Assembly (NCBI GenBank): GCA_009664345.1
Contig: CP043547.1
Coordinates: 2,072,709 to 2,136,708 of the forward strand
DNA from: Planctomycetales bacterium 10988
Lineage (GTDB): Bacteria; Planctomycetota; Planctomycetia; Pirellulales; Pb10988
Direction of reading: 5' to 3'
DNA: 64,000 nt
Shown: piece after piece, positions 1,989-57,568 of the stretch
How positions within the stretch are numbered: position 1 is the first letter of the stretch
How the letters are laid out: every line of letters starts with the position of its first letter
The notes under the pieces: generated by a model
Told to the model about the DNA's origin: nothing
Databases searched by the model: none
The model's input: only the letters and a program-made list of their open reading frames with translations
Position numbers and translations under genes: made by a program

Positions 1989-2027
1989 TATTGACGAGCT
2001 TTGGCGAGCCAGCACGAACACCAGGGA

Positions 2028-2105
2028 GACGAAGCGTGATCGGTGTTCGGTTTTCAGTGTTCGGTACTTGATGCGAACACCGCAGCCAGGTGAATGTCGG
2101 TCTGG
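2028..2105. repeat. Minimal copy of the GTGTTCGGTTTTCAG hairpin repeat (left arm plus short complementary tgcgaacaccg)
   Basis: gaagcgtgatcggtgttcggttttcagtgttcggtacttga is nearly identical to the left arms of the 9.27 kb and 10.32 kb copies. The following cgaacaccg can pair with cggtgttcg. It sits just after the stop of the phosphatase gene. Confidence 0.6.
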
Positions 2106-2285
2106 AAGCTGGTGAGTTAGGAAAAGATATTAAAATGCCTCTGCGTTCGATTTTCAGCATTTGATAAGTGTATGGTCTTCGGGAGATCTTCACCCCAAGT
2201 ACCGAAAACCGAACACGCTTCGTTACCTTCTCCTTACACGTCGCAGCTCCTTCAATCCACGTCGCCAGCTTCTTTGATCTTGTTC

Positions 2286-3620
2286 TTATCGAACAAGACA
2301 CCTAAACCGAAGAATCCCCCCTTCGCCGGGTTTGAGGGGTTCGGCGAGTTCCCAACGGAGAACCGAAGAGTCGGCTTCGTTGACGGTGTAGCTGAAGGCG
2401 ACTAGGTTCTGTTTCCAGCGGGGATTGCCTTCTTCGTCGCGAAGAACTTCACCTGCCTCATCACGAAGATAGCCGTTCTTCACACTTGCTTGTGAGCTTT
2501 CCGGGACATAGGCCAAGCGAGGGCTGAGGTTATCCATGATAACGACGTTGTTGATGGTTTTGTCCCCGATGTTATCAAATCGCAACGTAAAATCGACGAA
2601 TTCGCCAGGGTTGGTCGCGTTCTTGGAAGCCACTTTGACGAGCCGCAGTTTCGAGATGCCGCATTCATAGACGACATAGGTTTCTTGGGCCTGCTCGTCA
2701 GTCGCGACTTCGGCGGCCTTCTCTTCATCGATCAGCACCACGGCGGCTTCGGTCGATTCCCAAGTAACGGCCGCATCAATCGACTGGGCTAAGAACGGTT
2801 CTTCGGACTGTTCAAAAATCCCATAGCGAATGAGCGAATAGTTCTCGTGGGCTTTGAAACTGTTGTCAAATCCAACCGCTGCCAGGTACTTGGTCGCGAT
2901 TCCCGCCCAGCGATCGCCGAGATAAGCTTGCGGCGACACTCTGGTGACTTGCCGTCCCAAGGGTACGTTCGCTTGCCGGGACAAGACCTCTTGATCGTCT
3001 TGCATGGCCAACGTCGGCAGACTTTCACGTGTGCCAACAGGATTGATGATCTGTTCGTTCAAGCCGACGCCACTGACCGTGCGAACTGCGGCAAATCGCG
3101 GAGCATAAATCGTGACACGGTTGGAAGGTTGGACGACCAGTTCGCCATCTTCGGTTTCAAAGTGTGCCACGGTATCTTCGATATCGAGACCATCGACTTC
3201 GTCCGCTCGATTGACACCAACTGGCGGACCAATGTCACCACCATCGTAAATGTATTCATCCGCAGGCCAAGGACCAGCCACGCCTGGAGGTGCCCAAGGC
3301 CCAACGGGAATCGGCGTTGGTGCTAAAGTATGTCCTTCCGGCGGAACGGGCGGAGGCCCATTCATAAGCGGTTGGCCAGGCATCATCCCTGGTCCAAGCA
3401 TTCCCGGAGGCATCCCACCCGGAAATCCACCTGGTGGACAATTTGCTGGCATGCCCGCCATCGGATAACCAGGCATCCCTTGCGGTCCGGGCAGTCCAGC
3501 CATCTCCGGCGACATCGGGCCAGGTGCTTGGCAAGAGCAGAAAAAGAGCAACAACGATGCGGCGGTTCCTCGCACGGGCAACGTCAGCCAGCGGTAGATA
3601 GTTGATTTTCGATCCATCAT
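2286..3620 (-). CDS. secreted Pro/Gly/Met-rich protein with DUF11-like C-terminal domain
   Basis: N-terminal hydrophobic signal, then GMPGYPMAGMP...PGMLGPGMMPG low-complexity segment. C-terminal FVDFTLRFDNIGDKTINNVVIMDNL resembles the DUF11 conserved repeat. Last gene of a three-gene minus-strand cluster. Confidence 0.6.
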   Translation of the reverse strand: MMDRKSTIYRWLTLPVRGTAASLLLFFCSCQAPGPMSPEMAGLPGPQGMPGYPMAGMPANCPPGGFPGGMPPGMLGPGMMPGQPLMNGPPPVPPEGHTLAPTPIPVGPWAPPGVAGPWPADEYIYDGGDIGPPVGVNRADEVDGLDIEDTVAHFETEDGELVVQPSNRVTIYAPRFAAVRTVSGVGLNEQIINPVGTRESLPTLAMQDDQEVLSRQANVPLGRQVTRVSPQAYLGDRWAGIATKYLAAVGFDNSFKAHENYSLIRYGIFEQSEEPFLAQSIDAAVTWESTEAAVVLIDEEKAAEVATDEQAQETYVVYECGISKLRLVKVASKNATNPGEFVDFTLRFDNIGDKTINNVVIMDNLSPRLAYVPESSQASVKNGYLRDEAGEVLRDEEGNPRWKQNLVAFSYTVNEADSSVLRWELAEPLKPGEGGILRFRCLVR

Positions 3621-3635
3621 GAAAACCTGTTTCTC

Positions 3636-4625
3636 TTATCGAAAGAACCGTACAGTAGGTCGCTCACTCATCGTCCCGGACTCGGTCGCGGGAGCGATGG
3701 GATTGGCTGGATACGTTTGATTATAGGGTTGCCCAGTTTGCGGATTCACGGGTTCCGAGGGAGGAAGCGTCCCCGGCTGACGTGGTCCATTCAGCATCGT
3801 GGGGACTTTCGCAGGGGGCATCGAAACCGGCGGAAGTTCATCCTTGGCAGCATCGCGGGAATAGTAAGGATGCGGTGGCGTCGGGGCCGCTGGTTGATTG
3901 AAGCGAATGAACGGCACATTCGGTCCAATGAAATCGGCTTCGTACATGCCGGGTTGCGTCGGTTGCCGACTTCCAATTCGCAAGATAGCCACTGGTCTGC
4001 CCAAGGTATCCGCCACTTGAATCGGATTGGCTCCCGTCCCGGCATCGAACCAGCGTTGCTTGGCAGGGTTGTCGGCTACCGGCATGGCGTTGTTGGGATT
4101 TTCTAGATAAATCACCCTGGTGACAAACTGCCCATTGAGAGCCAAAGTCAAATCTTCAATCGAAAGATCAATCGGAATCGGGAACTCCCGCTCGCGTCCA
4201 ACCGGCGGATAGATACGATCGATCAATTCAATCGTCGGGTATATCGCTTGATTTTCGGCAAAAGGAATATTGGAAACCTTCAGGCGATAAACAGCTCCGA
4301 CCAACAGCCCGACTTCTCGTGGCAAGGCCGTTAACGGCTCAAACTGTCCATTCACTGCCATGGCGACCGTGAGCGGTCCTTCGGATTGCAGGCGAATGGG
4401 TTGATAATATCCTTGCACAGGATAACCGCGTTGCACGGCCGTTCCTCCAACCACCCCCGGTGGCGGAGTCGGCGACCAGCGATAATTCACCGGGTCATTG
4501 ATTTGGGCAACTGCGAGCGAGGTCGCAAAGGTCGTCAGCAGGAAACTACTCCAACCGACCAATAAAGAACAAACAGGAAATGATGGTTTGAGCCGGATGT
4601 GAGACATGACGTGAAGACTCCTCAA
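3636..4625 (-). CDS. secreted hypothetical protein, paralog A of tandem pair
   Basis: Signal-like N-terminus and Pro-rich C-terminus. Core motifs AVYRLKVSNIP...YPTIELI and GQFVTRVIYLENP...AILRIGSRQ align with the upstream paralog. Only 15 bp separate it from the downstream gene. Confidence 0.6.
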   Translation of the reverse strand: MRSLHVMSHIRLKPSFPVCSLLVGWSSFLLTTFATSLAVAQINDPVNYRWSPTPPPGVVGGTAVQRGYPVQGYYQPIRLQSEGPLTVAMAVNGQFEPLTALPREVGLLVGAVYRLKVSNIPFAENQAIYPTIELIDRIYPPVGREREFPIPIDLSIEDLTLALNGQFVTRVIYLENPNNAMPVADNPAKQRWFDAGTGANPIQVADTLGRPVAILRIGSRQPTQPGMYEADFIGPNVPFIRFNQPAAPTPPHPYYSRDAAKDELPPVSMPPAKVPTMLNGPRQPGTLPPSEPVNPQTGQPYNQTYPANPIAPATESGTMSERPTVRFFR

Positions 4626-4826
4626 TATTTTCTATCCGGCGATGCGAAGCGTTTCGAAGGAACGCTTCACACGCAAAAGGCCGCAGGCTTCTACGGCTGA
4701 ACCTGCCTCCCTCGATATCCAGGGACCGAAGGAGGCAAGCTTTCTCGAAGGCAACTTTTTCCTCTGCCGAGGCCTAACCCAACGTGGTCCTCAGCCCCGA
4801 CAGAGATTCGATCTCCTCAGCTCGCC

Positions 4827-5870
4827 TTACTTGCCGAACTCGTGAACATGCACGCGATCAACAGGTTTCGGATAGCTGTAACCCGGCGATTCCTTGATGT
4901 TGTACTTCATGTGATCGACCGGCAACGGAATATGATGCGGGGTGTAGTTTCGCATCGTATGTTGTTGCAAGCCGGCAGGAGCACCCAAAGGAAGATGCGG
5001 AGGTCCAGGAAGTCCGATCGGAGTTCCGGTGCGGGGAAGTCCCCATTGCGGACCCGGAGCACCAACGGCTCCCGGAGGCACAGCCGCCATCGGCATGCCG
5101 CCTGGTCCCATCGGTCCCATCATGCCGGCACCACCGACCATTTGGCCGTCAGGTCCAGGCAGTTGGAAATCTTTGTTCCCCAAGCGAACGATAGCCAAGA
5201 TAGCTCCGCGGCGATCGGCTTCGACAATCGGATCGACACCCGGATCAAGTCGCGTGCTGACGAGTGTTTCCACCCCAGCGATGGCCAGTTCTTGGAATTC
5301 AGGATCGGGAAGATAGATGACCTTGGTGACAAAGTGTCCGGTTTGGACTTGGTCGAAATCTTCCGGAGTGAACTGAATCGGAATCGAGTTGTGCGACAAG
5401 TAAGCAGCCGTTCGCGGCAAGACCGGAGCCACTTCCAACGAAGGATAGAGTTCCAATCCAGGACGATTCGGAATGTTGGTCAATTTCAAGCGGTAGATCG
5501 CCCCTTGGCCGAAATTGAAACGACCCGGCACGATAAGCGGTTGCGAATCGAACATGCCCGGTTGGATAGCATCCCATTGGACTTGCATCCCCGCGGGGCC
5601 AATGAAGGCAACTTGCGAAGTCGGAGGTGGTCCAGGCGGTCTCATGGGGGGCATCGGCGGAATGACACCAGGCCCAGGTCCAGCAACTCCGGGACCAGGG
5701 TGCATCAGCCGTTCGGCCGGAGGTAATTTATTCGCCGCATGGGCGAGGCCCGCAGCTCCATTACAATCTCCCCCCGGTCCGCAGGTAGGATTGAATAACA
5801 TACGCGAATGGACGCAACCGACGCCTGTCAGTGCGAGCCAAGTAAATGCCAAAGCCAGTAGATATCTCAT
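4827..5870 (-). CDS. secreted hypothetical protein, paralog B of tandem pair
   Basis: [19 protein letters not shown] signal, Cys-containing N-region, [18 protein letters not shown] and C-terminal [15 protein letters not shown] low complexity. Core [11 protein letters not shown]...YPSLEVA and [13 protein letters not shown]...[12 protein letters not shown] are shared with paralog A. Confidence 0.6.
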
Positions 5871-6317
5871 CAGTCTTTCCCTCGGGACAAGCTAGCGTCA
5901 TCCTTAGCGCCACGTCTTCCGGCAAATCGGCATCAAACCGATCCGGATTGGCATGGACCCCTGCCGCCGCCCGCCCTATAGTGGGCTCGCGAACCGGCAC
6001 TTTTGTACTCTGGACAGCTTCGACCCAACCATTACGCGTCGAGTGCGTCCACCATTGTTGGTTTCAGGATCGGTCGATCTCGGAAAAAGGCATTTGTGAT
6101 CCATCTCAAATTACCTCGAATATCTCGACTCTCCATGACCCATGCGGGGAGAACGACAACGTAGGCATTTGTCATTCGGCATGAATCAATCGTTCCCCTT
6201 CTTGCGTGGAAGGAGCGGGGTGAGGCCTCCAGGTGATCCTGCGTGAGGATCTTCCTCTGCATCCTAGTTCGGTCCGTTGCCATGCGAATCTTTGGAAAAT
6301 CCGTCAGAACCGTAGTG

Positions 6318-7298
6318 ATGAAAAATTTTGATAACTTGAGAATGTCGTTCCCAAGCCTATTTTTGGCTGTCTTAGGGCTATCTTTTTTTCTTGGCTGGTC
6401 CCCACTTTTTGGTCAGCAGGACGCTCCACAAGCGGCTCCGCTGGAAGGTCACCAGCTTCTCCAAATTGCCCTCGATCGCCTAAATGCCACGCCGGAACTC
6501 ACCGTCCGCTTTCGCCAAGAGGTCAAAACCTTCGGCCCAGTCGTACGAGGAGCAGGCATCTATGTGAAAGGCTCCGGCAACCGTTCTTACTTTGAACTCA
6601 AAATCCAAGGCGAACACGGACAGCCACCGACCGTCGTGCAACAAGTCTGCGATGGCAAGACGCTCTGGGAATTCCGCGACATCTTGGGCAAAACGGAACT
6701 GGTCCGCGTTGAGCGTGCCCATGTCGAAGAAGTCCTCAAAGCCAATCCTCACCATCTCCCCCAGCCTCTGCAACTTCAAGGCATCGGCGGACTTGCTCGC
6801 ATGCTTTCCGGATTGCAAGCGGCTTTTCGATTTCATCGACCACGAAGGGTCGTTCGCTCAAGCCAAGATCAACAAAAGCAAGATGTCGCGGTCTTGCGAG
6901 GCACTTGGAAAACGGAATCGTGGATGCGTCTGCTTCCCGAACAGGCCGAAGCAATCGCCCAGGGACAGCCGCCGAACCGCGATTCCTTGCCCGATTATTT
7001 GCCCACAGAGGTTGAACTTCACCTCCGCTCCAAGGACCTCTTGCCGGTCTATCTGGAGCTTTCTCGCCTGGAAGAAGTGGAATGGGCCTGGCCTTGGCAA
7101 GAGAAAGAAAAACTCCCACTGCGGCGGGTTCCCTTCGTCACCATGCACTTTTTCGGACATCTACCGCGCGTCGAGGACGAAACCGTCTTCCAAATCGATC
7201 CCCACGATCCCCGCCTTCAAGCGGCCGAAGACCGCACCGAAACCTTCTTGCACCAACTCGATATGCACATGATGGTGAATCCGGAAGGAATGGAGTGA
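6318..7298 (+). CDS. hypothetical secreted protein
   Basis: Long ORF. The likely start is MKNF (6318) or MSFPSLF (6342), ahead of the hydrophobic signal LFLAVLGLSFFLGWSPLFG. No recognisable domain. Confidence 0.5.
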   Translation: MKNFDNLRMSFPSLFLAVLGLSFFLGWSPLFGQQDAPQAAPLEGHQLLQIALDRLNATPELTVRFRQEVKTFGPVVRGAGIYVKGSGNRSYFELKIQGEHGQPPTVVQQVCDGKTLWEFRDILGKTELVRVERAHVEEVLKANPHHLPQPLQLQGIGGLARMLSGLQAAFRFHRPRRVVRSSQDQQKQDVAVLRGTWKTESWMRLLPEQAEAIAQGQPPNRDSLPDYLPTEVELHLRSKDLLPVYLELSRLEEVEWAWPWQEKEKLPLRRVPFVTMHFFGHLPRVEDETVFQIDPHDPRLQAAEDRTETFLHQLDMHMMVNPEGME

Positions 7299-7344
7299 GT
7301 GGCTGGTGAACCATTGTTAATAGTTTTGAAGGAATGAAAAAGTA

Positions 7345-7400
7345 AGGAATCGGTTTCAGGGTTCGGGTTTCGGTACTTGGAGTGAACATTTCCCGCCAGT
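7345..7400. repeat. Degenerate relative of the GGTTTCAG/GTTCGG repeat family
   Basis: ggctggtgaa...cggtttcagggttcgggtttcggtacttggagtga shares the ggctggtgaa and GTTTCAG-GTTCGG-TACTTGGAGTGA segments with the full copies. It lies between convergent gene ends. Confidence 0.4.
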
Positions 7401-7428
7401 GAAACAGATTCCCGTCTTTTACCAGGAC

Positions 7429-9228: not shown

Positions 9229-9258
9229 GGATTTTCCTTGCTTGGCAAGGAAAGTTGC
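9229..9258 (+). terminator. Stem-loop ttccttgcttggcaaggaa immediately after the aminotransferase stop
   Basis: 7-8 bp GC-containing stem directly after TAA, with a weak U-tract (gttgcttg). The same hairpin, inverted, follows the DUF1080 gene at 10527-10546. Confidence 0.4.
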
Positions 9259-9261
9259 TTG

Positions 9262-9482
9262 AGGATGGAACGAAGCGTGTTCGGTGTTCGGTTTTCAGTG
9301 TTCGGTACTTGAGGTGAAAACCGGAGGCTAGTGAAGGTCGAGTCAGTTTCAATCCAAGTTTAAGATGGGTCTTTAAAGACCTTCAGAGTTTGAGAACGGG
9401 ACAGTCTTCGGAAATTTTCACCCTGGGACCGAACACTGAAAACCGAACACTGAAAACCGAACACTGAAAACCGAACACGACC
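9262..9482. repeat. ERIC/MITE-like hairpin repeat, full copy A
   Basis: The left arm cgtgttcggtgttcggttttcagtgttcggtac is the reverse complement of the right arm gaccgaacactgaaaaccgaacac, with three tandem ccgaacactgaaaa units on the right. About 110 bp core contains the small palindrome ggtctttaaagacc. Confidence 0.7.
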
Positions 9483-10164: not shown

Positions 10165-10312
10165 AAGTGAGGAGCCAAAAGGAGTCGAGGAAAGAAGAAA
10201 GCTAAAACTTCAACTGTAGGGAAAAGTCCGTCTAGCTGTCTAGTACACTTTCGGGGAAGAAGGGGAGAAATTTGGTTGGAGAGAGTATTCTTTGGCAAAA
10301 TTACCCGCGAGA

Positions 10313-10500
10313 AAGGGAACGAATCGTGTTCGGTGTTCGGTTTTCAGTGTTCGGTACTTGGAGTGAGAGTCAGAGGCTGGTGAAAGTCGAATCAGTTTCA
10401 ATCCAAGTTTAAGATGGGTCTTTAAAGACCTTCAGAGTTTGAGAACGGGACGGTCTTCGGAGATTTTCACTCCGGGACCGAACACTGAAAACCGAACACA
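10313..10500. repeat. ERIC/MITE-like hairpin repeat, full copy B
   Basis: About 90% identical to copy A across arms and core. The right arm carries only two ccgaacactgaaaa units. The flanking hairpin tttccttgccaaacaaggaaa abuts the DUF1080 stop. Confidence 0.7.
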
Positions 10501-10547
10501 ATTCGCTCCATTCTCAAGTCGCTTTCCTTGCCAAACAAGGAAACTTT

Positions 10548-25729: not shown

Positions 25730-26416
25730 AATAAGGCTTGCCTAGTAGGAAAGATCATTATTCGTTAGGAAGAGCAGACTCGAAGAAGCTCCATTCCCAG
25801 CTCCTCCGGAAATAAGCGATCCTCATCGCGTCTGAATGTCTTGCCAATTCACAATGGGAAATCGGAAGGTGTCGCATCCATCAAATCTTCCAGATTGCTT
25901 TTCCCAGGCAAAGAAATACCGACAGGAAGATACAAGCCCCTGTTTGTAGAGACAAACCGTTTCAAAGGTAAGGTTTCCGAGAGTATCTCTCAAGCGGACC
26001 CCGCTTGAAAATTTCAATACTTTTTCACCTTTTTCGAGGACTTGGCTAGTCGTGCAATTCCTTTCATCTCGGTAATTTAAAGGAAATATAGACAGTTTAC
26101 TGGTTTCATGGAACACCAATTGTCTGTATTCCCCCTACATCTACTAGATTCCCATTATTTTTTATTTTCTGGCTGAATCCGACAATCGTCGCCTCTTATG
26201 AACGGATAAAATTGCCAATTTGCTTATTATTGATTGATAATGCGATTATGAGAACGAAGACCCAGAATAGTTAGGTGTACACACAATCTTCTCACCCACC
26301 TATCTCAAAATCAATCAATAATGATCATTCAATATATTGTAGCGCCGAAATTTCGCCACCCTATATATCGACATACTAAAAGTTTATTCGCGCATTATCA
26401 ATCGATAATGTGCTAA
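25730..26416. promoter_or_regulatory. AT-rich fabH upstream region carrying three CATTATTGATTGATAATG-like palindromes and a TATATA element
   Basis: Sites at about 26225-26250, 26297-26324 and 26390-26413. ccctatatatcg lies at about 26361. GC is far below that of the flanking genes. Confidence 0.4.
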
Positions 26417-30904: not shown

Positions 30905-30950
30905 TGAGAGTTAGGTTTCAGGTTTCGGGGTTCGGGTTTCAGGGGCTGGG
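30905..30950. repeat. Degenerate tandem GGTTTCAGG/GTTCGGG element related to the hairpin-repeat family
   Basis: ggctggtgaaaa...ggtttcaggtttcggggttcgggtttcagggg parallels the degenerate copy at 7345. Confidence 0.35.
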
Positions 30951-30966
30951 GATGAGCGAGAATAGA

Positions 30967-31010
30967 AAACGAAACTCCTTCTCTTAGGATAACCGAGGAG
31001 AAGGAGTTTC
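30967..31010 (-). terminator. Rho-independent terminator of the flotillin gene
   Basis: Minus-strand reading: gaaactccttctcctcggttatcctaagagaaggagtttc (12 bp stem) followed by gttttctattc. Confidence 0.5.
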
Positions 31011-39273: not shown

Positions 39274-40722
39274 TCAATTCCCAGCTACCAGTAAGACTAT
39301 GATGGTGAGCAGTGAAAGGAGAATCAAGACCCCCAAAGCAATGATTAGAAGCGGAGGCTTACTGGAAGAACTTTCCTTTTCCACTTTTGCGGTAGAAGTC
39401 TTCGCAGCTTGGGCGGCTTTCTTTAATTTATTGCCAGGAACCGCCGACCCGGTGGCGATCTCCTCTTGAACCGAGGCACCTTCGGCTGCGGCCTGCTTTT
39501 CCGGGCGAGGCGAATGAGTAGGGGTCGATTGGGCCATTTGGGCTGGTTCATCCGCCGGAGTCGGCTCCGCCTTGGCGACCATGGTATCGGCCTGCGATCC
39601 TTTGATCGTATCGCTTTCGGTTTTCGTGGGATTTTTTTGAGGAGCCGGCGAAATTCGGGAGTAAAGGGCCGGCGACCCGCTTTGATTGATCGAGAAATTA
39701 TTCAACGCCTCGATCACTTCTTCCATCGTCTGGTAGCGATGTTCCCGTTTCTTGGCCATCATCTTGTTGAGAATCTCCTCCAGTTCATCCGGCAAATCGG
39801 AGCGATCATCTCGAATCGGCAGTGGAGTCCCTACTTGATGACACATCAACTTCTTCGCCAAATTTTTTTCATTGGCGTAAGGGGCATGCCCGCACAGTAT
39901 ATAATAAAGGGTACAACCCAGGGCATAGACATCGGCCCGGCTATCGACGTGGTGACTATTGAGGGCTTGTTCCGGGGCCAAGAAATCCGCGGTTCCCAAC
40001 ACGTCTTCGTTATGAGCCAAGGTCAAAGAGGACTCATCGTCCGAGTTGGTAATGCGGGCCACCCCGAGGTCGAGAACTTTGATGGATTTTCGCTTGTCCA
40101 ACATCAAGTTGGCCGGTTTCATATCCCGGTGAACCATGCCTTGATCGTGGGCATGTTGCAGAGCCGAGGCGGCTTGAGCAATGTAAGTGGCTGCTTCGAC
40201 ATAATCCAAGACGCCCCCATCATCGACCAAACGTTGCAAATCTTTACCGTCGATGAATTCCAACACCATGTAATAAAGGCGTTCTTTTTCGCAATCGAAG
40301 TCGTGCGCCCGCACGATATTCGGGTGATCGAGCGAAGCCATCACCTGACATTCGCGGTGAAAACGCTCTAGGAACGAAGAGTCGTCCTTGCGGGCAGGCG
40401 GTAAGATTTTGATCGCGACTTGACGACGCATCATGGTATGCTCCGCCAAGTAAACGCTACTCATTCCCCCGCTGGAGATATGCCGTAAAAGCTTATATTT
40501 GCCGAGGAAAAAACCTTGGTGTTTCCCCTGCATGAGCTTTTCGTTTTGCCAATCGGTGATGAGATCCTTCTCGATTAAGCGGTTGGCGATTTGCCGCGCA
40601 TTGGTTGGAGCCTCGCCAATCTCGCGTTCCAATTCCGCGAGAGCAGCTTGCAATTCGGCTTCCGGCACGAGTTTACTTTTTCGCACCAGTTCGGGATAAT
40701 TCTTAACCGCTGAGGTAGACAT
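39274..40722 (-). CDS. Ser/Thr protein kinase with C-terminal TM anchor
   Basis: HRDMKPANLML, DLGVAR, APEQA. Conserved roughly 90-aa pre-kinase domain and a C-terminal hydrophobic helix (LLIIALGVLILLSLLTIIVLLVAG). Confidence 0.85.
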   Translation of the reverse strand: MSTSAVKNYPELVRKSKLVPEAELQAALAELEREIGEAPTNARQIANRLIEKDLITDWQNEKLMQGKHQGFFLGKYKLLRHISSGGMSSVYLAEHTMMRRQVAIKILPPARKDDSSFLERFHRECQVMASLDHPNIVRAHDFDCEKERLYYMVLEFIDGKDLQRLVDDGGVLDYVEAATYIAQAASALQHAHDQGMVHRDMKPANLMLDKRKSIKVLDLGVARITNSDDESSLTLAHNEDVLGTADFLAPEQALNSHHVDSRADVYALGCTLYYILCGHAPYANEKNLAKKLMCHQVGTPLPIRDDRSDLPDELEEILNKMMAKKREHRYQTMEEVIEALNNFSINQSGSPALYSRISPAPQKNPTKTESDTIKGSQADTMVAKAEPTPADEPAQMAQSTPTHSPRPEKQAAAEGASVQEEIATGSAVPGNKLKKAAQAAKTSTAKVEKESSSSKPPLLIIALGVLILLSLLTIIVLLVAGN

Positions 40723-41289
40723 GCAGATCGGACCGAAATGTCTAGAGAAGAAAAGGTCGTTAACCAGCCTAAGCGAAGAAACGGTACTCGAAGCAACCTT
40801 CCTACACCAAGCTTATCATCGAACGAGAACGCCCCTGAAAGATTCTTTCAGGAGGATAAACTGATCCGCAGAAATGCGAGTTAGGGAGAAAACTTCTTTC
40901 CTAAAATTCTAAATGGAATTTCGTCGGATCGCAATTCCCTCGCTCGATTCCGTACCGTTATTTCCTTGAGAAACTTAGCCGCTGAACGAAAGAAAGGCTC
41001 GGAAAGAGTTCGTTCAAGGCTAACTTCAGCTTCTTCAAGAAAAGCCCCATCGTCCACAACTCAAGGAGAGCATTTCGGCCCTCTTGAAATCTGCTCGGTC
41101 AGAGCCACGACTTGAATTACAACGTAACTTTCGCACCCCCGGCAATCAACTCCCCGCTGGTCGGAATTCCGAAAAAACGACCTTTCTCAAGGAGTCCTCC
41201 CTTACGCAATCGATTCGATGCACAAAAGAAGAACCTCCTGCAAGGACCCCGAGTCGGAGTGCAGCGTATACATCACACCGCGGAATCGT

Positions 41290-42591
41290 TTACGGTTCAA
41301 TAATCTCTTTATTCGGAGGCGGAATGAAGATCGGGGTTTTACATTTCGGGCAGCGAACGCGGCGGTTGGCAAGCTGAAAAGGTGCTCCAAAGGCCGACTT
41401 ACATCCACCACATAACACCCGCAACATCGGGCGATCATTCATAACGACCGTGTTTCTGTCCACATTCGAACTGGTCTCCCCGACAGGGTCCGATTTCTTC
41501 GGAGTCGTTGCATCGAAGACCGTTTTCCCTTTAATTTCAAACTTGCTGGGATTCGCCCAAGGCTCTAAAAGATCGACCACTTCTTGCATGTCGTGAGGGC
41601 GATCATCGGGAGCTTTTGCCATCATCTGTTCGACAATTTGGGCCAAGGGATGAGGAACGTCAGGTCGAATTTCCTCAATTTTTTCCGGCTTTTGCAGCTG
41701 ATGAGCAAGCAGTTTTTGGGCTTGATGGCCATCTGGGAACGGTGGGTGCCCAGCCAGCAAGGCATAAAAGGTACAGCCCAGACTATAGATATCCGCTCGA
41801 TGATCGACTTCGTGGCTGTTCATGGCTTGTTCGGGTGCCAAGTAATCGATCGTTCCCAAGAGATTTTGATTGCTCGTCAAGGTCAGCGAATCATCGAATC
41901 CCGTAATCCGGGCGATTCCCATGTCCAGAACTTTCAAGGTTCCTTGACCATCCACTAAGAGATTCGCCGGTTTGATATCCCGGTGAACCATTTCAAGCCG
42001 ATGAGCCTCGGACAATCCCAATGCTGCTTGACGGATATAATCCGCAGCCGTTCCAAAATCGAGCTTTCGTTTATTAATAAGATATTTTTCTAGGCTGTGA
42101 CCGGCAACATACTCCATCACTAAATAATGAAATTTGCCGTCCGAATCAAAATCAAACGCCCGGACAATATTAGGGTGATCGAGCAAAGCAACCGCTTGGC
42201 ATTCCCGACGAAATCGCTCTAGGGCAATATTGTCAACCCTGGCTTCCAGCAAGACCTTGATGGCAACCTTGCGACGCATCATGACATGTTCGGCCAAATA
42301 GACCGTACTCATGCCACCGGTGCCGAGAAAATCGAGCAGTTTATATTTGCCAAGGAAAAACCCCTTGGAACGCCCATCCATCAAATGACGATTTTGCCAT
42401 TTAGTAATGAGTTGCAGGTCTCGTAAACGGTCCGCCAGAATGATGCTATCACTCGGGGTTGATCCCCCGCTCTCTTGTTCCAAATCGGACATGATCGCAT
42501 CAAGAGAGTCCTTCTCGACGATCCCGCTTCGACGAACAAGTTCAGCATATTCGTTTAGATGACGAACTTTGCCTTTTTGTTGTTTAGCCAT
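41290..42591 (-). CDS. Ser/Thr protein kinase with C-terminal C4 zinc ribbon
   Basis: HRDIKPANLLV, DMGIAR, APEQA. Same N-terminal pre-kinase domain as the neighbouring kinase. C-terminus LCGGCK...RCPKCKTPIF. Confidence 0.85.
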   Translation of the reverse strand: MAKQQKGKVRHLNEYAELVRRSGIVEKDSLDAIMSDLEQESGGSTPSDSIILADRLRDLQLITKWQNRHLMDGRSKGFFLGKYKLLDFLGTGGMSTVYLAEHVMMRRKVAIKVLLEARVDNIALERFRRECQAVALLDHPNIVRAFDFDSDGKFHYLVMEYVAGHSLEKYLINKRKLDFGTAADYIRQAALGLSEAHRLEMVHRDIKPANLLVDGQGTLKVLDMGIARITGFDDSLTLTSNQNLLGTIDYLAPEQAMNSHEVDHRADIYSLGCTFYALLAGHPPFPDGHQAQKLLAHQLQKPEKIEEIRPDVPHPLAQIVEQMMAKAPDDRPHDMQEVVDLLEPWANPSKFEIKGKTVFDATTPKKSDPVGETSSNVDRNTVVMNDRPMLRVLCGGCKSAFGAPFQLANRRVRCPKCKTPIFIPPPNKEIIEP

Positions 42592-43352
42592 CTATATTGA
42601 ATCCTAATCTCCGTGGAGGAGGGTTGGGAGCAACTCGCTCCGATAGGGTCCCGACCTAAACACTCCCACACAAAGTTATTCTGTCTTCGTGACAGAGGCC
42701 ATAGTTGTGCCGAATCCAAGGTGATTGACACCAAGTTCGTGCATTATAGCTTTTCTTGCCTAATTAACAAGGAATAATCCATCAGCCCCTGACCATCTTC
42801 AAGAGGATTTTTTTCCTTTCGAAAGACGGAGAGCATTGCAACGATGTTCAAAAATGCGTATCCCAAAACGATTTTGTTCTAAGTTCTTGCACAAGAAAAT
42901 TCTTTAGGAGACACTTTTTTCAATCTTCGCTCGAATCGCGAAACCGTGATAAGAACCCAATTGACTCCATCTTTTTCCTGGTTGCGGACATTGAAGTTCC
43001 TTCAACCCATAAAAGATGAGAAGTAGGAAAAAGATGTCTAGTCGTTAGCTGAGTCATATTAAGAATCCTTTCTTAATAAGAGTCAAAGAGTAAACGCATC
43101 AAATAATGCCATTGAAGAGAAGAGTCTCAAAACGATTTTTACTCAAAAACCCAACTTAGTTCTGCCAACTTCGTTGTTGTCAGCTTGTTACTGAGGTTAT
43201 TATGATACATAAATGTCCTCAAAGTAAAAGAAAAATTTTGAATTTCTCCATAATAATCAAAAACTCAGAGATAAATCGGTTCCGAGCCTAAATCACGCGA
43301 GTGGAATGCACGGGTACATTTCGGTTCGCAAGCCTTACAATTCTAGGACGCT

Positions 43353-48904: not shown

Positions 48905-49684
48905 ATGTCGAACGATAATCCATTTTCAAGTTCTTCCAATCCATTTGAGACACCTGCTTCGAATTTCTCTCCACACGCCCCTGGCGAAGCCGTCCCGATC
49001 TCTCCTCAGATCTTTACGCTCGACTATGTCGTTCAGACAACCAAAGAGATCTATATGGAGCGTTTCGCCCCGGTTTTTTTCAGTACACTTATTTTCTGGG
49101 GGGTTAGCTTTGTAGGTGGGCTCCCCGCTCAGTTCGCACAAGGGTTGATGAACCCAGAACTCGGAATCGTGAAGGATGAAGCCGGCTTGCTGCTGATGGC
49201 CGCTCTTTGGTTTTTCTTTTACATCATCTCGTTAGTCATCAACGTTTGGATTTTGGCCGGGCACACGAAATTTTTAATGCAAGTTGTCCGGGGTGAAACA
49301 GAAAATTACGGAGTGATATTTTCCGGACCAAATTTTCTTTCCCTCTTGGGAACGTCCCTTCTTTATTACCTCATGCTGGGCTTTGGGATGGTCTTTTTCA
49401 TTCTCCCTGGGATTTTTCTCTTTACGGCCCTCTGGCCTTGTATTTATTTAGTCATTGACGATCGCACGAATACCTTGGGCTCTTTCGGAACGGCCTGGGA
49501 ATATACCGAAGGAAATCGTCTTACAGTGTTCTTGCTTGCCTTGGTCATGATCTTGGTAAGTCTTTGTGGTTTGCTGCTCTGCTGCATCGGGGTGATCTTT
49601 GCTTTCCCGGCGATTCTGCTTGGATACGTGGTCGCTTACTTTGCCATTACAGGCCAACCGACGTTCTTGGATGCTAGAAAATAA
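48905..49684 (+). CDS. multi-pass membrane protein, tandem paralog 1 of 4 (MSNDNPF... family)
   Basis: Motifs shared with the three following genes: N-terminal DNPF, FLMQVVRGE, LPGIFLFTALWP, LGSFGTAWEYTEGNRL, ITGQPTFL. Confidence 0.65.
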   Translation: MSNDNPFSSSSNPFETPASNFSPHAPGEAVPISPQIFTLDYVVQTTKEIYMERFAPVFFSTLIFWGVSFVGGLPAQFAQGLMNPELGIVKDEAGLLLMAALWFFFYIISLVINVWILAGHTKFLMQVVRGETENYGVIFSGPNFLSLLGTSLLYYLMLGFGMVFFILPGIFLFTALWPCIYLVIDDRTNTLGSFGTAWEYTEGNRLTVFLLALVMILVSLCGLLLCCIGVIFAFPAILLGYVVAYFAITGQPTFLDARK

Positions 49685-49835
49685 TTGATCAAAGCGAATT
49701 GAATGATTCCAATTAAAGGGTTGTGCTTAGCGGAATTCACTGCTATTCATAACCCTTTTGCTATTGATCCTTGTTTCATTCACTCTGTGATGCATGAATC
49801 CCTGCTCTACTCTTCCTCCAAGTTGGCAATCAACC

Positions 49836-50690
49836 ATGAGCGGTGACCCTCAAGAAAACTTCTTGCAAGGTGATTCAAATCCTTTCAAATCACCCGAATC
49901 CGAATATGGTCAGGTATCGGTAGAAGTTGATAAGGAACTGGATGTTCGCCACGTCCTTAGGAAATCCCTCGATATTTGCAAAGGGAACCTCAGAGTCATT
50001 ATTGTCGGCAGTTGGATGATGGCAGTTAGTTTCGCTGTTTGTTTTTATGCACTTATGGCGATTCCTTTCATGATCTTTGTTGTTTTTAACGAGATCATAA
50101 AAACCAACGTAGGAATCCACCCATTAGATTTTTTACTCTTCAGTGCGCTTCTTATTATATTTTTCTATCTACCTGCAGCGATTCTATTTCTTTCGAGTTG
50201 GTTGATCACAGGTCTGAATCGCTACCTGATGGCAGTAGTGCGAGGGCAGCGACTTGACTACAAAATGATTTTCGAAGGAAAAAAGCTCTGGCCGTTATTT
50301 GGGACTTTCTTCCTTCTATTTTTGGTGATCGTTGCCGGCTTATTGCTGCTCGTTGTTCCTGGAATCTTTTTGGCACTCTGCCTTTGGCCTGCTCCCTATT
50401 TAATCTCTGAGAATCGCTATCGGGCGATCGATTCTTTTAAAGTGGCGTGGGAATTAATGGAAGGGAACCGTCGGGCGATGCTACTGCTTGCCCTGGCGTT
50501 GCTCCTTATCAATGCGGTTGGAGCCTTACCGGCCTATGTTGGGCTTCTATTTACGGTGCCGTATACGCTTGTTGTTCTGGTGGTCAGTTACTTCGAACTC
50601 ACCGACCAACCGACTTATCTTGATCTAAAAGAAGAATCGGATGCTTTGGGCACAACCGATGTTCCTCCTGAGGCTCCCCCTCTTTCTTAA
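49836..50690 (+). CDS. multi-pass membrane protein, tandem paralog 2 of 4
   Basis: Start moved to MSGDPQENFLQGDSNPF by analogy with the paralogs. Motifs YLMAVVRGQ, VPGIFLALCLWPAPYL, IDSFKVAWELMEGNRR, LTDQPTYL. Confidence 0.65.
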   Translation: MSGDPQENFLQGDSNPFKSPESEYGQVSVEVDKELDVRHVLRKSLDICKGNLRVIIVGSWMMAVSFAVCFYALMAIPFMIFVVFNEIIKTNVGIHPLDFLLFSALLIIFFYLPAAILFLSSWLITGLNRYLMAVVRGQRLDYKMIFEGKKLWPLFGTFFLLFLVIVAGLLLLVVPGIFLALCLWPAPYLISENRYRAIDSFKVAWELMEGNRRAMLLLALALLLINAVGALPAYVGLLFTVPYTLVVLVVSYFELTDQPTYLDLKEESDALGTTDVPPEAPPLS

Positions 50691-50825
50691 TCTTTCGCAA
50701 GAAATTGACGTGCTCGCTTGTGAGTGGTAGCTCGCTTTGCTAGGTTCAGGGCATTTCGACAGGTATATTCTATTGACCGTTATTAGTTTGCCTATCATCC
50801 TTGTAGAACCAGAGGAACCAAACGA

Positions 50826-51620
50826 ATGAGCGGCGACAACCCCTTTCAGACCCCACAAGCTGGGCCATTTCACTCCGAGCAAGGTGTTCCCATCCCCGCT
50901 GAGGTGACGAAGAACACCTTGGATTTTGGCCAGGTACTCGGCGACTCGGTTAAAATCTATCAAGAAAAATTTGTACCGCTGTTTGTTAGTAATTTGATTC
51001 TACTGGGATGGATACTGCTGGTGCTCGCAGTACTCTTCGGCATCCCGACTGCGGTTGCTGCCGCGATGGTCGACTCGAACCCAAACGGCGGACCTCCGGG
51101 AGAACCTTCCGGTGCCGTATTGCTGGTGATCATGGTTTTCGGCTTCTTCTCGGTGATTCTCTATCCCCTTGCCCTCTGCTGGATGCTGGCGGGTTTCAAC
51201 ACATATCTCTTTCAACTCGTCCGCGGCGAGCAACCTTCGTTTGGGGTCCTTTTTAGTGGAACAAATTTTCTGCCTTACCTCGGGGTGTTACTTCTGCTTT
51301 CGATCGCAGTCAATTTGGGGATGTGTCTATTGATCATTCCGGGCCTGTTCCTGGCGTTGTCGCTGTGGCCTGCTCCTTTTCTGGTATTGGAAAACCGCTA
51401 TAGCGTGATGAACTCCTTCAAGAAGGCATGGGAACTTACGGAAGGCAACCGCCTGACGATGCTACTCATTGCCTTTATTCTCGGCTTGATTAATGGAGCA
51501 GGTGCCCTTTTGCTCTATGTCGGAATGCTATTCACCCTGCCCTTTGTGAATCTCGCAGTGATTGTTGCCTATTTTATGATCACCAGCCAACCGACTTATC
51601 TCCAAGCTGAGGGGAAATAA
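50826..51620 (+). CDS. multi-pass membrane protein, tandem paralog 3 of 4
   Basis: MSGDNPFQTP; YLFQLVRGEQP, IPGLFLALSLWPAPFL, MNSFKKAWELTEGNRL, ITSQPTYL. Confidence 0.65.
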   Translation: MSGDNPFQTPQAGPFHSEQGVPIPAEVTKNTLDFGQVLGDSVKIYQEKFVPLFVSNLILLGWILLVLAVLFGIPTAVAAAMVDSNPNGGPPGEPSGAVLLVIMVFGFFSVILYPLALCWMLAGFNTYLFQLVRGEQPSFGVLFSGTNFLPYLGVLLLLSIAVNLGMCLLIIPGLFLALSLWPAPFLVLENRYSVMNSFKKAWELTEGNRLTMLLIAFILGLINGAGALLLYVGMLFTLPFVNLAVIVAYFMITSQPTYLQAEGK

Positions 51621-51846
51621 AAACTCCTTCTCTAGCAACAATCCAGCTTCCACCAAGACCCAAAACCATCCACGGCTTCTGGGTCTTTTTCGTTGATCGC
51701 ATCAGAAAAAAGCTAAGATAAGATTGTAATGTTCTTGGGGAGACACCTTGAGGAGATGCTGAAATTTTGTTAACTTTTAACAGTTATCACCTAGACTTTA
51801 GAGCGATTTCGATCCCAGCTAACGACTTACTAAATAGGACCAAGGA

Positions 51847-52764
51847 ATGAGTGGGGCCAATCCATTTCGAAATGAATCTGATCCGTCTGACTTCCATTTC
51901 TCCAATAATCTCTTTCCCAATTCCGAACCGCAGGTGCCTAACTTTTCGCAATCAGCACCTTCGCAACCGGTATCCGACCAAGGAAGTTCCGAGGGACCCG
52001 TTCTTGGCGTTCCTCGCCCTGAGGAACTGACGCCCTGCAAGCTTGATATCAATGAGGTCATGGGGCATGCCTTTACAATCTATCAAGAACAATTTCTCTC
52101 CATCCTCGGTGGGCTGATGCTTCTTCTTGCCAGCTTCTCCGCGGTGGCCGTCTTCATCCCTCAAGTGATTTTCATTTTTGGAGCCCTCTTAATCTCCGAC
52201 CCTGAAACGGCCTCGCCTGTTGGAGAATTTTTCAACGTCATCGGTGCGGGAATTTCCATGTTCGGGATCGTATGGTTGACCGCGGGGAATTTTCTCATTT
52301 TTTGCTATTTCATGCTGGGATATCAACAGTTTCTGCTCAACATCGTTCGAGGGAGAAAGCCCCAGTTCCGTTCTATTTTTCAAGGGAAAAATTTTATCAA
52401 TTACGTGGTGATCGGCGTTTTGATGACGCTGCTCGTTCAAATTGGGAATTGTCTCTTGCTTCTGCCTGGAATTCTCATCGCAATGACCTTTTGGCCTACG
52501 GGCTATCTTATTATTGATCGAAGATGCACGGTATTTGAATCCTTTGGAATTGCATCGAGTTTAACGGACGGCTCCCGACTCAATTTCTTCCTCATGATGA
52601 TCATTCTTACCTTTATGAATGCGTGCGGATTCTTGTTAGTCGGGATCGGTTATGTCTTTACCATGTCCATCACGTTTCTCGCATTCATTCTCGCCTACTT
52701 AGCGATCTCGGGCCAACCAAATTATTTGCAGTCAGAACAGTATCAGTCGAAGTACTATTCATAA
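51847..52764 (+). CDS. multi-pass membrane protein, tandem paralog 4 of 4
   Basis: MSGANPFRNE; FLLNIVRGRKP, LPGILIAMTFWPTGYL, FESFGIASSLTDGSRL, ISGQPNYL. The most diverged member. Confidence 0.65.
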   Translation: MSGANPFRNESDPSDFHFSNNLFPNSEPQVPNFSQSAPSQPVSDQGSSEGPVLGVPRPEELTPCKLDINEVMGHAFTIYQEQFLSILGGLMLLLASFSAVAVFIPQVIFIFGALLISDPETASPVGEFFNVIGAGISMFGIVWLTAGNFLIFCYFMLGYQQFLLNIVRGRKPQFRSIFQGKNFINYVVIGVLMTLLVQIGNCLLLLPGILIAMTFWPTGYLIIDRRCTVFESFGIASSLTDGSRLNFFLMMIILTFMNACGFLLVGIGYVFTMSITFLAFILAYLAISGQPNYLQSEQYQSKYYS

Positions 52765-56647: not shown

Positions 56648-57568
56648 TCTTGTCTCCAGCTACTTGAGAAAATGGGACTTACTACGAAGTCACCAAAGGT
56701 ATTCAAACATTGAATGCGGGTAAATCCAGGCACAGCCTGGGAAACTATTGATCGAATCAACCGTCGAAGATTCAGCCAAGGTAATGAGAAAATCCGATGA
56801 CTCTCAGCCTTACCTACAAAAAACATATCCCTAATGTCTAATATACAAATCATTCCATTTAGACAAGGACTAAAATCTCAACAAACCGATTACGGATCAA
56901 AATTATCGGAAAATCGACCGTGGAGTTAACGAACGATTATTTTCTGATAGAGATTTATCCCAACGATGGGAAGAAACAGAATTTTGAGATTATGAAATCT
57001 ATCCTCCGTACTATTCACTTCAGAAGCCAAAGTACGGGACGAAAAGAATCTGGAAGAGTCGCGTATACTTAAGCGTAGACGCGGGATACGTCAGATCGTA
57101 AATTCTCGGCAGAATGAATCTGATCGTTCCTAAATTATAATTGTAAGTGTAAGCGGTTCTTAAGGACTTCTCAAGGAAAATTCAAGCGAAAGTACAGAAT
57201 TTCTGCAAAAAAATGACGAAAAAAATTGAATTGAGAGGAATCATTCCCCGAAGAGGTCCTTCATTTCCCGTCAAAGTTTCCTTGAACTCGCTTGCTTGAT
57301 GTCCTTGCTAGTCTTGTTAAACTATTATTTGTAAATCAATCGAAGAGGGAACGACGAATATTTCATCTAGTTTGCCTCAAAAGTCGAATACTGACAACTG
57401 AACGGAACTGCACTCTTTCAATTTCCTGGCACATTGTCTTCAAACTTTGCCTGATTTACCGAAAAAGCGAACCCTTTGACCACTTCGTTGGTCCTTTATT
57501 ATTGGTCCTTATCTATTACTTTGGGCTGAACGACTTCGGCGTTAGCAATCACCCCAGGTACCGCTGCT

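Follow-up and report, generated by a model that had tools for sequence, protein, structure and literature searches.

Heptad-armed intergenic hairpin repeats in Planctomycetales bacterium 10988, a candidate foldback/MITE-like family

The repeat and its copies

The window analysed here is a stretch of 64,000 nucleotides from the 6.65-Mb genome of Planctomycetales bacterium 10988; the 48 of its ORFs that were inspected are all either of housekeeping type or of unknown function. Four of its intergenic sites carry a repeat, three as full copies (A, B, C) and one as a decayed copy (D), which together span 8.3 kb (Table 1) and are clustered within the 64-kb window rather than dispersed (p about 0.003-0.004). 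The genes on either side are convergent at copies A, C and D and tandem at copy B; there is no consistent orientation relative to the neighbouring genes, and the chromosomal orientation of A, B and C is identical. A first-pass annotation, made from the letters alone, had described the element we call copy A, and each feature it listed is indeed present: arms that are reverse complements of each other (30 nt, 93% complementary, with a perfect 23-nt core), a palindrome in the core and tandem units in the right arm, which form a perfect 14-nt array (Table 1). The second copy it proposed, our copy B, is likewise real and 92% identical to A over 184 nt (10316-10499 vs 9267-9450); the limits drawn for it were, however, too short for the palindrome found here.

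Table 1. Positions of the repeat copies, their parts and associated features in the window
Feature	Position	Strand	Details
Copy A	9262..9482	no strand	left terminal motif 9267-9284; left heptad arm 9277-9306
Copy A, core	9307-9427		palindrome GGTCTTTAAAGACC inside at 9368-9381
Copy A, right arm	9428-9478		3.6 perfect 14-nt units; right terminal motif absent
Copy B	10309..10515	no strand	most complete palindrome of the copies
Copy B, parts			terminal motifs 10316-10333 and 10492-10509; heptad arms 10326-10355 and 10477-10499
Copy C	2026..2226	no strand	terminal motifs 2026-2043 and 2209-2226; arms 2043-2065 and 2201-2216
Copy D	~7338..7405	no strand	decayed, with internal deletion; found by profile search
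Hairpin module 1	9233..9254		TTTCCTTGCTTGGCAAGGAAAG; starts 5 nt past the aminotransferase stop codon; left of A
Hairpin module 2	10522..10543		inverted, 21/22 identical; 2-4 nt past the DUF1080 stop codon; right of B
DUF1080-to-HAD intergenic region	10165..10547	-	383 nt, comprising hairpin module 2, copy B and another ~150 nt
Four-gene block, apparently inverted	2286..7298		444, 329, 347 and 351 aa; reversed vs four relatives; bounded by C and D

The unit of ~200 bp is built in four layers, namely a terminal inverted repeat, heptad arms, inner flanks and a centre. The outermost layer, a terminal inverted repeat, is unique and measures about 18-25 nt (GAGRANGGAACGAAGCG), and the terminal motif GGAACGAAGCGTGTTCGG (allowing up to 3 mismatches) is found at five of the six ends against 0.09 expected, the exception being the right end of A. 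The arms consist of 3-7 contiguous heptads that read G-K-N-T-T-C-R on the 5' arm and its complement on the 3' arm; TRF reports the arrays with period 7 (4.3 copies) and period 14 (3.6 copies), and among the copies the inverted arms are 23-36 nt long and 81-100% complementary. Within the window, the arm 23-mer GTGTTCGGTTTTCAGTGTTCGGT occurs seven times and the 9-mer GTGTTCGGT 15 times, with 0 and 0.3 expected, respectively. Polymerase slippage at heptamers is frequent in bacteria, and it is by slippage that the arms change, as the perfect 3.6-copy array of 14-mers in the right arm of A illustrates. Further in, the flanks are conserved and lengthen the stem, whereas the centre diverges fast. Copy C has arms and termini as in A and B and a core just ~55% identical; in the comparison of A with C, identity is 82% over arms and termini but 57% over the core (p = 3e-4). 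What homology the A and C cores have is in direct orientation (z = 13, vs z = 0.3 for the reverse complement) and confined to the inner flanks, the central 70 nt being not significant (z = 1.4). A repeat family thus exists, and its termini and arms are far better conserved than its core. As for copy D, the left terminus, degenerate heptads and the inner-left flank are clear and the right terminus is tentative; because it folds no better than shuffles (z = -0.45), we call it decayed.

Folding of the full units predicts long and very stable hairpins, with -88.7 kcal/mol for copy A (z -5.3 vs shuffles) and -97.6 kcal/mol for the + strand of copy B (z -8.0 vs shuffles), in line with the stem that the first-pass annotation had anticipated. 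The other strand of B reaches -84.8 kcal/mol, a difference in which G-U pairs favour the + strand and the z-scores are equal, and the element in single-stranded DNA form is also predicted to fold into a hairpin (-53 kcal/mol, z = -7.2). Since the reverse strand and single-stranded DNA fold stably too, folding cannot separate DNA-level from RNA-level roles.

A 22-nt hairpin module (TTTCCTTGC..GCAAGGAAAG) accompanies copy A on its left side and copy B on its right side, in opposite orientations, and both module copies sit directly behind the stop codon of the neighbouring gene. Module and linker (CTTGAGGATGGA) both belong to the repeated unit (repeat I1: 81 nt, 80%). Terminator scoring picks up the small flanking hairpin in one direction only, outwards from the element, and a sigma-54-like TGGCA-N-TTGC in the module was rejected by eye, its GG-to-GC spacing being 1 base too long.

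With 200-220 bp and stops in all six frames, the units do not code for protein: a six-frame check found no ORF or peptide conserved across copies, the small candidates MGL* (A, B) and MPLRSIFSI* (C) being dissimilar, and the six-frame peptides of the element, used as protein queries for mis-annotated ORFs over other copies, gave no matches. Nor does the 64-kb window encode a transposase, integrase, Y1/HUH enzyme or reverse transcriptase; the absence of a nearby transposase, already remarked on in the first-pass annotation, makes 'non-autonomous element' the best reading. Target-site duplications were sought by inspection at the borders of A, B and C, which are approximate, and no direct repeats were identified there. 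Blastn against plasmids and phages returned no match and a virus scan with the arm 23-mer 0 matches. All in all, the notion finds support that these intergenic repeats form a family, able to fold into hairpins, conserved in their inverted termini and devoid of coding capacity.

Elsewhere in the window, three AT-rich palindromic boxes (TTATTGATTGATAATG-like; 26219-26416), direct and inverted, give a 689-nt intergenic region the look of an operator array, and the box presumably resembles a Fur box. Four tandem paralogous genes (48905-52764; 259-305 aa, 27-39% identity) belong to no Pfam family, have a weak YciC-like match as their sole one in NCBIfam and look like a membrane protein putatively expanded in this lineage. 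At 39274-42591, two neighbouring paralogues of a Ser/Thr protein kinase, 51% identical over 340 aa, are separated by a gap of 567 nt. Long intergenic regions at 56648-57568 (921 nt, with an Rrf2 regulator gene on one side and a PLP-dependent enzyme gene on the other), 42592-43352 (761 nt) and 40723-41289 (567 nt) have no Rfam match at the gathering threshold.

Gene order around copies B, C and D

Copy B separates a DUF1080 gene from a HAD gene, the latter located between A and B. In three relatives (L151, L152, L153), whose orthologues are 60-73% (DUF1080 hydrolase) and 54-56% (HAD) identical, the DUF1080 gene lies directly upstream of the HAD gene on the same strand with gaps of merely 35, 9 and 9 nt, and the junction has no heptad arrays. 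Compared with this spacing of 9-35 nt, the strain 10988 junction holds ~350 nt of extra DNA, and the 92% identity between the B and A cores argues that it was copied in rather than grown in place. Judged by gene order, copy B is thus an apparent insertion relative to the ancestral arrangement. The interpretation in the first-pass annotation is thereby supported in part, B seeming to split an ancestrally adjacent DUF1080-HAD pair. No target-site duplication was seen at it. Growth in situ plus local duplication is an alternative to insertion that might still apply.

A second rearrangement is suggested at copies C and D. Four relatives (L155, L156, L157, L159) have the order HisPhos(+), 351h(-), 347h(+), 329h(+), 444h(+), with HisPhos-351h gaps of 5-101 nt, and in the window this block is exactly reversed, with C at the left breakpoint and D at the right. 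By this comparison, C and D bound an apparent inversion of 5.3 kb; the chance of both breakpoints falling into element-bearing gaps is, by rough arithmetic, (4/47)(3/46) or ~0.006. The relatives on which both the empty site and the inversion rest are distant, with 45-73% protein identity, and, with a next best homologue of the HAD protein that is 56% identical, no close relative is available; hence, the insertion boundaries are not base-exact and the direction of change rests on parsimony. On the contig of another distant relative (L160, 17523-18194) we noticed a Y1_Tnp gene (PF01797, IS200/RAYT-type); there are no heptad arrays there.

Heptad-armed hairpins elsewhere and related repeats

The exact arm 23-mer was found in 32 metagenome contigs, many of which carry heptad-armed hairpins in intergenic DNA; their cores (10-200 nt) are unrelated, and the two arms differ in heptad count. 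A genome scan with the degenerate pattern GTGTTCGGT-N5-GTGTTCGGT gave, among the matches listed, mostly plain (GTGTTCG)n microsatellites. Polarity is strict in that a G/T-rich array is followed by its complement within 300 nt 19 times and the opposite order is seen 0 times. Where both flanks could be resolved (12 hairpins), six lie between convergent, five between tandem and one between divergent genes, and in 11/12 a gene 3' end adjoins the hairpin, often 5-20 nt past the stop codon. Solo arrays are a median 36 nt away from the ORF on their 5' side and 140 nt from that on their 3' side, and they adjoin an ORF and point away from it in 21 cases as opposed to 5 (21/26; p = 0.0025). This polarity is independent of ORF direction (17 face a 3' end, 21 a 5' end), which rules out GT-richness of the sense strand after stop codons as its source. 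A purine-rich GAAG lies just outside arrays in other organisms, too, at 7/26 ends vs 4.9% background, a motif that was selected post hoc after inspection of the data and stems mostly from one metagenome. One contig (L130) considered as a core homologue was dismissed as its alignment is limited to the arms.

Several of these loci deserve description in their own right. A contig with a different heptad (L158, 1733-2113) has divergent (GTCTTCG)n arrays at a distance of 318 nt, which face the divergent genes that flank them, and is a counter-example to the convergent-polarity rule. In a Fimbriimonadales MAG (L117, 3066-3144), a heptad-armed hairpin fills the gap of two tandem genes, beginning 8 nt past a stop codon and ending 29 nt before an ilvC-like ORF (MATIFYDKDVN). 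Contigs from a freshwater metagenome (L129, L131, L132, L139, L144, L148) show a heptad arm followed by a different composite repeat, a ~150-nt tandem unit with hairpin GAGCCGCGGACGGAAGTCTGCGGGTG, (CGCGAAGA)x3 and (GTCGGTC)n arrays. Beside heptad arrays, two further contigs have hairpins with arms of tandem 8-9-mers, ATGGGACGC... / ...GTCCCAT (L146, ~1160-1298) and GTATGGGN... / ...CCCATAC (L122, reverse strand, ~5100-5240), from which it follows that tandem-repeat-armed palindromes are not restricted to the G-K-N-T-T-C-R heptad. The window itself also contains a solo array (AGGTTTC/GGGTTCG, 4.4 copies) at 30913-30943 (and 30971-31010) without an inverted partner, ~60 nt upstream of an MgsA-like gene start and pointing away from it; the upstream SPFH-domain gene has a conventional T-run terminator hairpin beside the array.

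Bacterial MITEs and intergenic palindromes such as Correia, ERIC, RUP and Nezha resemble our element in size (100-300 bp), terminal inverted repeats and lack of coding potential, as well as in being intergenic, often by 3' ends, in forming long hairpins and in occurring at sites of insertion or rearrangement. They differ from it in having a fixed terminal inverted repeat in place of arms made of variable-number heptad arrays; moreover, the planctomycete element shows no target-site duplication and has no known cognate IS. ERIC itself, a label the first-pass annotation had used, can be set aside: ERIC-bearing E. coli genomes, 5,426 of which were compared by blastn, gave no match, and the host, a planctomycete, has a different unit. 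The MITE-like part of that label fares better, as inverted termini, small size, noncoding character and the filled/empty site at B all fit; of two further hallmarks, no target-site duplication was seen at A, B or C, and no cognate transposase was found in the 64-kb window.

Integron attC sites are recognised by a 5' RYYYAAC and a 3' GTTRRRY, a length of 57-141 nt and an integrase nearby. The element was rejected as an attC since its core-like heptads come in reverse order (GTTCGGT ... ACCGAAC), its length is at least 200 nt and the window lacks an integrase. Comparable in architecture are eukaryotic Foldback (FB) transposons, whose long terminal inverted repeats are built from short tandem repeats, with arm repeat numbers that vary, a middle that is variable or absent and ties to inversions and other rearrangements. 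The likeness is one of structure; FB elements are eukaryotic and kilobase-sized, and nothing points to common ancestry.

REP/REPIN sequences mobilised by RAYT share with the element inverted hairpin pairs in strict relative orientation, intergenic location, no target-site duplication and, as proposed for them, recognition of a single-strand hairpin. We nonetheless rejected this assignment because REP units measure 20-40 bp and bear a GTAG or CGTC tag (PMC3733652), whereas the unit here is ~200 bp long, has the termini GGAACGAAGCG and no such tag, and lies in a window without RAYT or any other Y1_Tnp domain.

Similar as regards the arms are the heptamer arrays of Xanthomonas and Nostoc (PMC4692102). 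Rehm et al. 2015 counted ~185 (GGGAATC)n arrays per Xanthomonas genome, including 70-75 convergent pairs; they are a mean 28 nt away from the upstream ORF, mostly transcribed and without an identified function, and between species their positions are kept while their length is variable (PMC4692102). There, too, heptamers are heterogeneous and intergenic, pairs are frequent and always convergent near the end of the upstream ORF, and it is the G-rich strand that runs outwards from the neighbouring ORF. The arrays described here are likewise intergenic tandem heptamers of at least two units, form convergent pairs and point off the ORF. They differ in that their heptads (GTGTTCG, GTTTTCA) have no G3 run, hence no quadruplex potential, and in that the pair sits inside a copied unit whose termini are unique and whose core is homologous; also, relatives of strain 10988 have no arrays at equivalent sites, whereas Xanthomonas arrays keep their positions. 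The excess of heptameric repeats in bacteria is ascribed to slippage (PMC4692102, citing Mrazek 2007). TAACTGA repeats of Beggiatoaceae, Cyanobacteria and Bacteroidetes (MacGregor 2015, PMC4679880) are comparable as abundant intergenic heptamers scattered over phyla with no link to gene function; their heptad differs, and they are nearly all direct (1 inverted among 170) and placed just upstream of start codons (PMC4679880).

A foldback/MITE-like unit and its rivals

From the above, we consider it on balance probable that the element represents a small family of non-coding, non-autonomous foldback/MITE-like repeats, a reading with which the rivals weighed below are not mutually exclusive and beside which they may hold. 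It behaves like a small mobile or recombination-prone unit and not like a gene. One may envisage an enzyme, its gene located in another part of the 6.65-Mb genome, that copies the unit into further intergenic positions and would recognise the termini together with the inward-pointing heptad arrays; such recognition of inward-pointing heptads would account for the strict polarity. Movement would leave no target-site duplication, which is less in keeping with a DDE transposase than with a hairpin/single-strand-DNA mechanism. Recombination between the long inverted arms, giving rise to inversions for instance, may follow and could have caused the C-D inversion. Transcription from either side would yield a stem of at least 45 bp beside gene 3' ends, probably a passive barrier or insulator and as such a secondary effect.

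Rather unlikely, to our minds, is a scenario without mobility, where convergent arrays grow in place from neighbouring gene ends into a REP-like hairpin that serves, in RNA or DNA, as a barrier at 3' ends or between cistrons, be it as terminator, as insulator or by blocking exonucleases, the likeness of A, B and C being due to local duplication or gene conversion. Consistent with it are the 3' ends that adjoin 11 of the 12 resolved hairpins, often 5-20 nt past the stop codon, the solo arrays that mostly point away from their ORF (21 vs 5, p = 0.0025), the unrelated cores within one metagenome and the very stable folds of both strands. Xanthomonas (GGGAATC)n arrays show the same pairing at a mean 28 nt, are transcribed and hold fixed positions (PMC4692102), and the latter suggests that the class as a whole may arise in place and not by transposition. 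Such growth does not, however, explain how B brought an A-like core (92%), termini and hairpin module into a junction of 9-35 nt, and hairpin stability alone leaves the absence of the opposite polarity unaccounted for. By inspection, most of the hairpins have no T-run behind them, hence they are not canonical intrinsic terminators.

A broader version of the foldback idea, which we regard as doubtful, would make heptad-armed hairpins a cross-phylum foldback or gene-boundary class whose arrays are laid down or recognised by conserved machinery, with the planctomycete unit as a copyable version that drives insertions and inversions. If arrays always start by an ORF and point away from it, pairs would always be convergent. 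Were this true, the excess of heptamers that has long been noted in the intergenic DNA of bacteria would acquire a mechanism.

Alternatively, the arrays might be iteron-like sites for an oligomerising protein (ribbon-helix-helix or nucleoid-associated, for example) that sits on convergent 7-bp units, so that the hairpin would be incidental. The omega repressor of pSM19035 binds contiguous heptads, direct or inverted, and the strict 7-nt phasing and contiguity of the arrays, the far better conservation of heptads than of the core, the partnerless solo arrays (at 30913-30943 and at many other loci) and a polarity independent of the adjacent gene direction (17 vs 21) would all suit such a protein. 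We nevertheless think this quite unlikely given that no candidate binding protein was identified, that heptad sequence and number vary freely across sites and arms and that there is no tie to particular gene functions in the window.

Even less do we favour an RNA family, be it of structured small RNAs or of cis-regulatory 3'-UTRs, whose fold is conserved and which is transcribed from one strand, an option that the first-pass annotation had left beside the mobile element and that appears very unlikely. RNAalifold of the three copies retains the long stem with a few compensatory pairs (A and B differ by one such change, G-C to A-U, and C differs from A/B by several), all three copies conserve a C(UUCG)G-like motif and share their chromosomal orientation, and G-U pairs favour the + strand of B. 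On the other hand, the covariation term is positive (+2.46) and many inner-stem pairs are broken in copy C, so that with n=3 sequences a conserved RNA fold beyond the arms is not supported. The central 70 nt are unconserved, orientation relative to genes is inconsistent, the + strand of B is antisense to both neighbours with z-scores equal on the two strands, and a search for a sigma-70-like promoter on the + strand found none that was convincing. Rfam 15 has 0 matches in the window at the gathering threshold, and the sole hit at the E-value threshold, to the plant miRNA hairpin MIR5998, is meaningless with 31.7 bits vs a gathering score of 180.

We give least credence to a neutral by-product of polymerase slippage at heptamers plus palindrome-templated correction, with neither function nor dedicated machinery: it would suit the perfect recent expansion in the right arm of A, the unequal heptad numbers between arms at many loci and the slippage to which the bacterial heptamer excess is ascribed (PMC4692102, citing Mrazek 2007), but it leaves unexplained the 19:0 polarity, the placement at gene ends, the conserved unique termini and how a homologous core came to lie in the DUF1080-HAD junction.

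Returning to the foldback/MITE-like reading, small palindromic repeats shape bacterial genomes and, to our knowledge, almost nothing is known of them in Planctomycetota. The element joins two things that are usually separate, a MITE-like copied unit and heptamer microsatellite arrays, and it is tied to concrete changes in the genome, one being the split of an operon junction and the other the apparent 5.3-kb inversion. That the polarity rule independently reproduces the Xanthomonas pattern with another heptad and in other phyla suggests a general process behind the excess of heptameric repeats in bacteria. The termini and heptads of the element provide a defined sequence with which that process may be tested.
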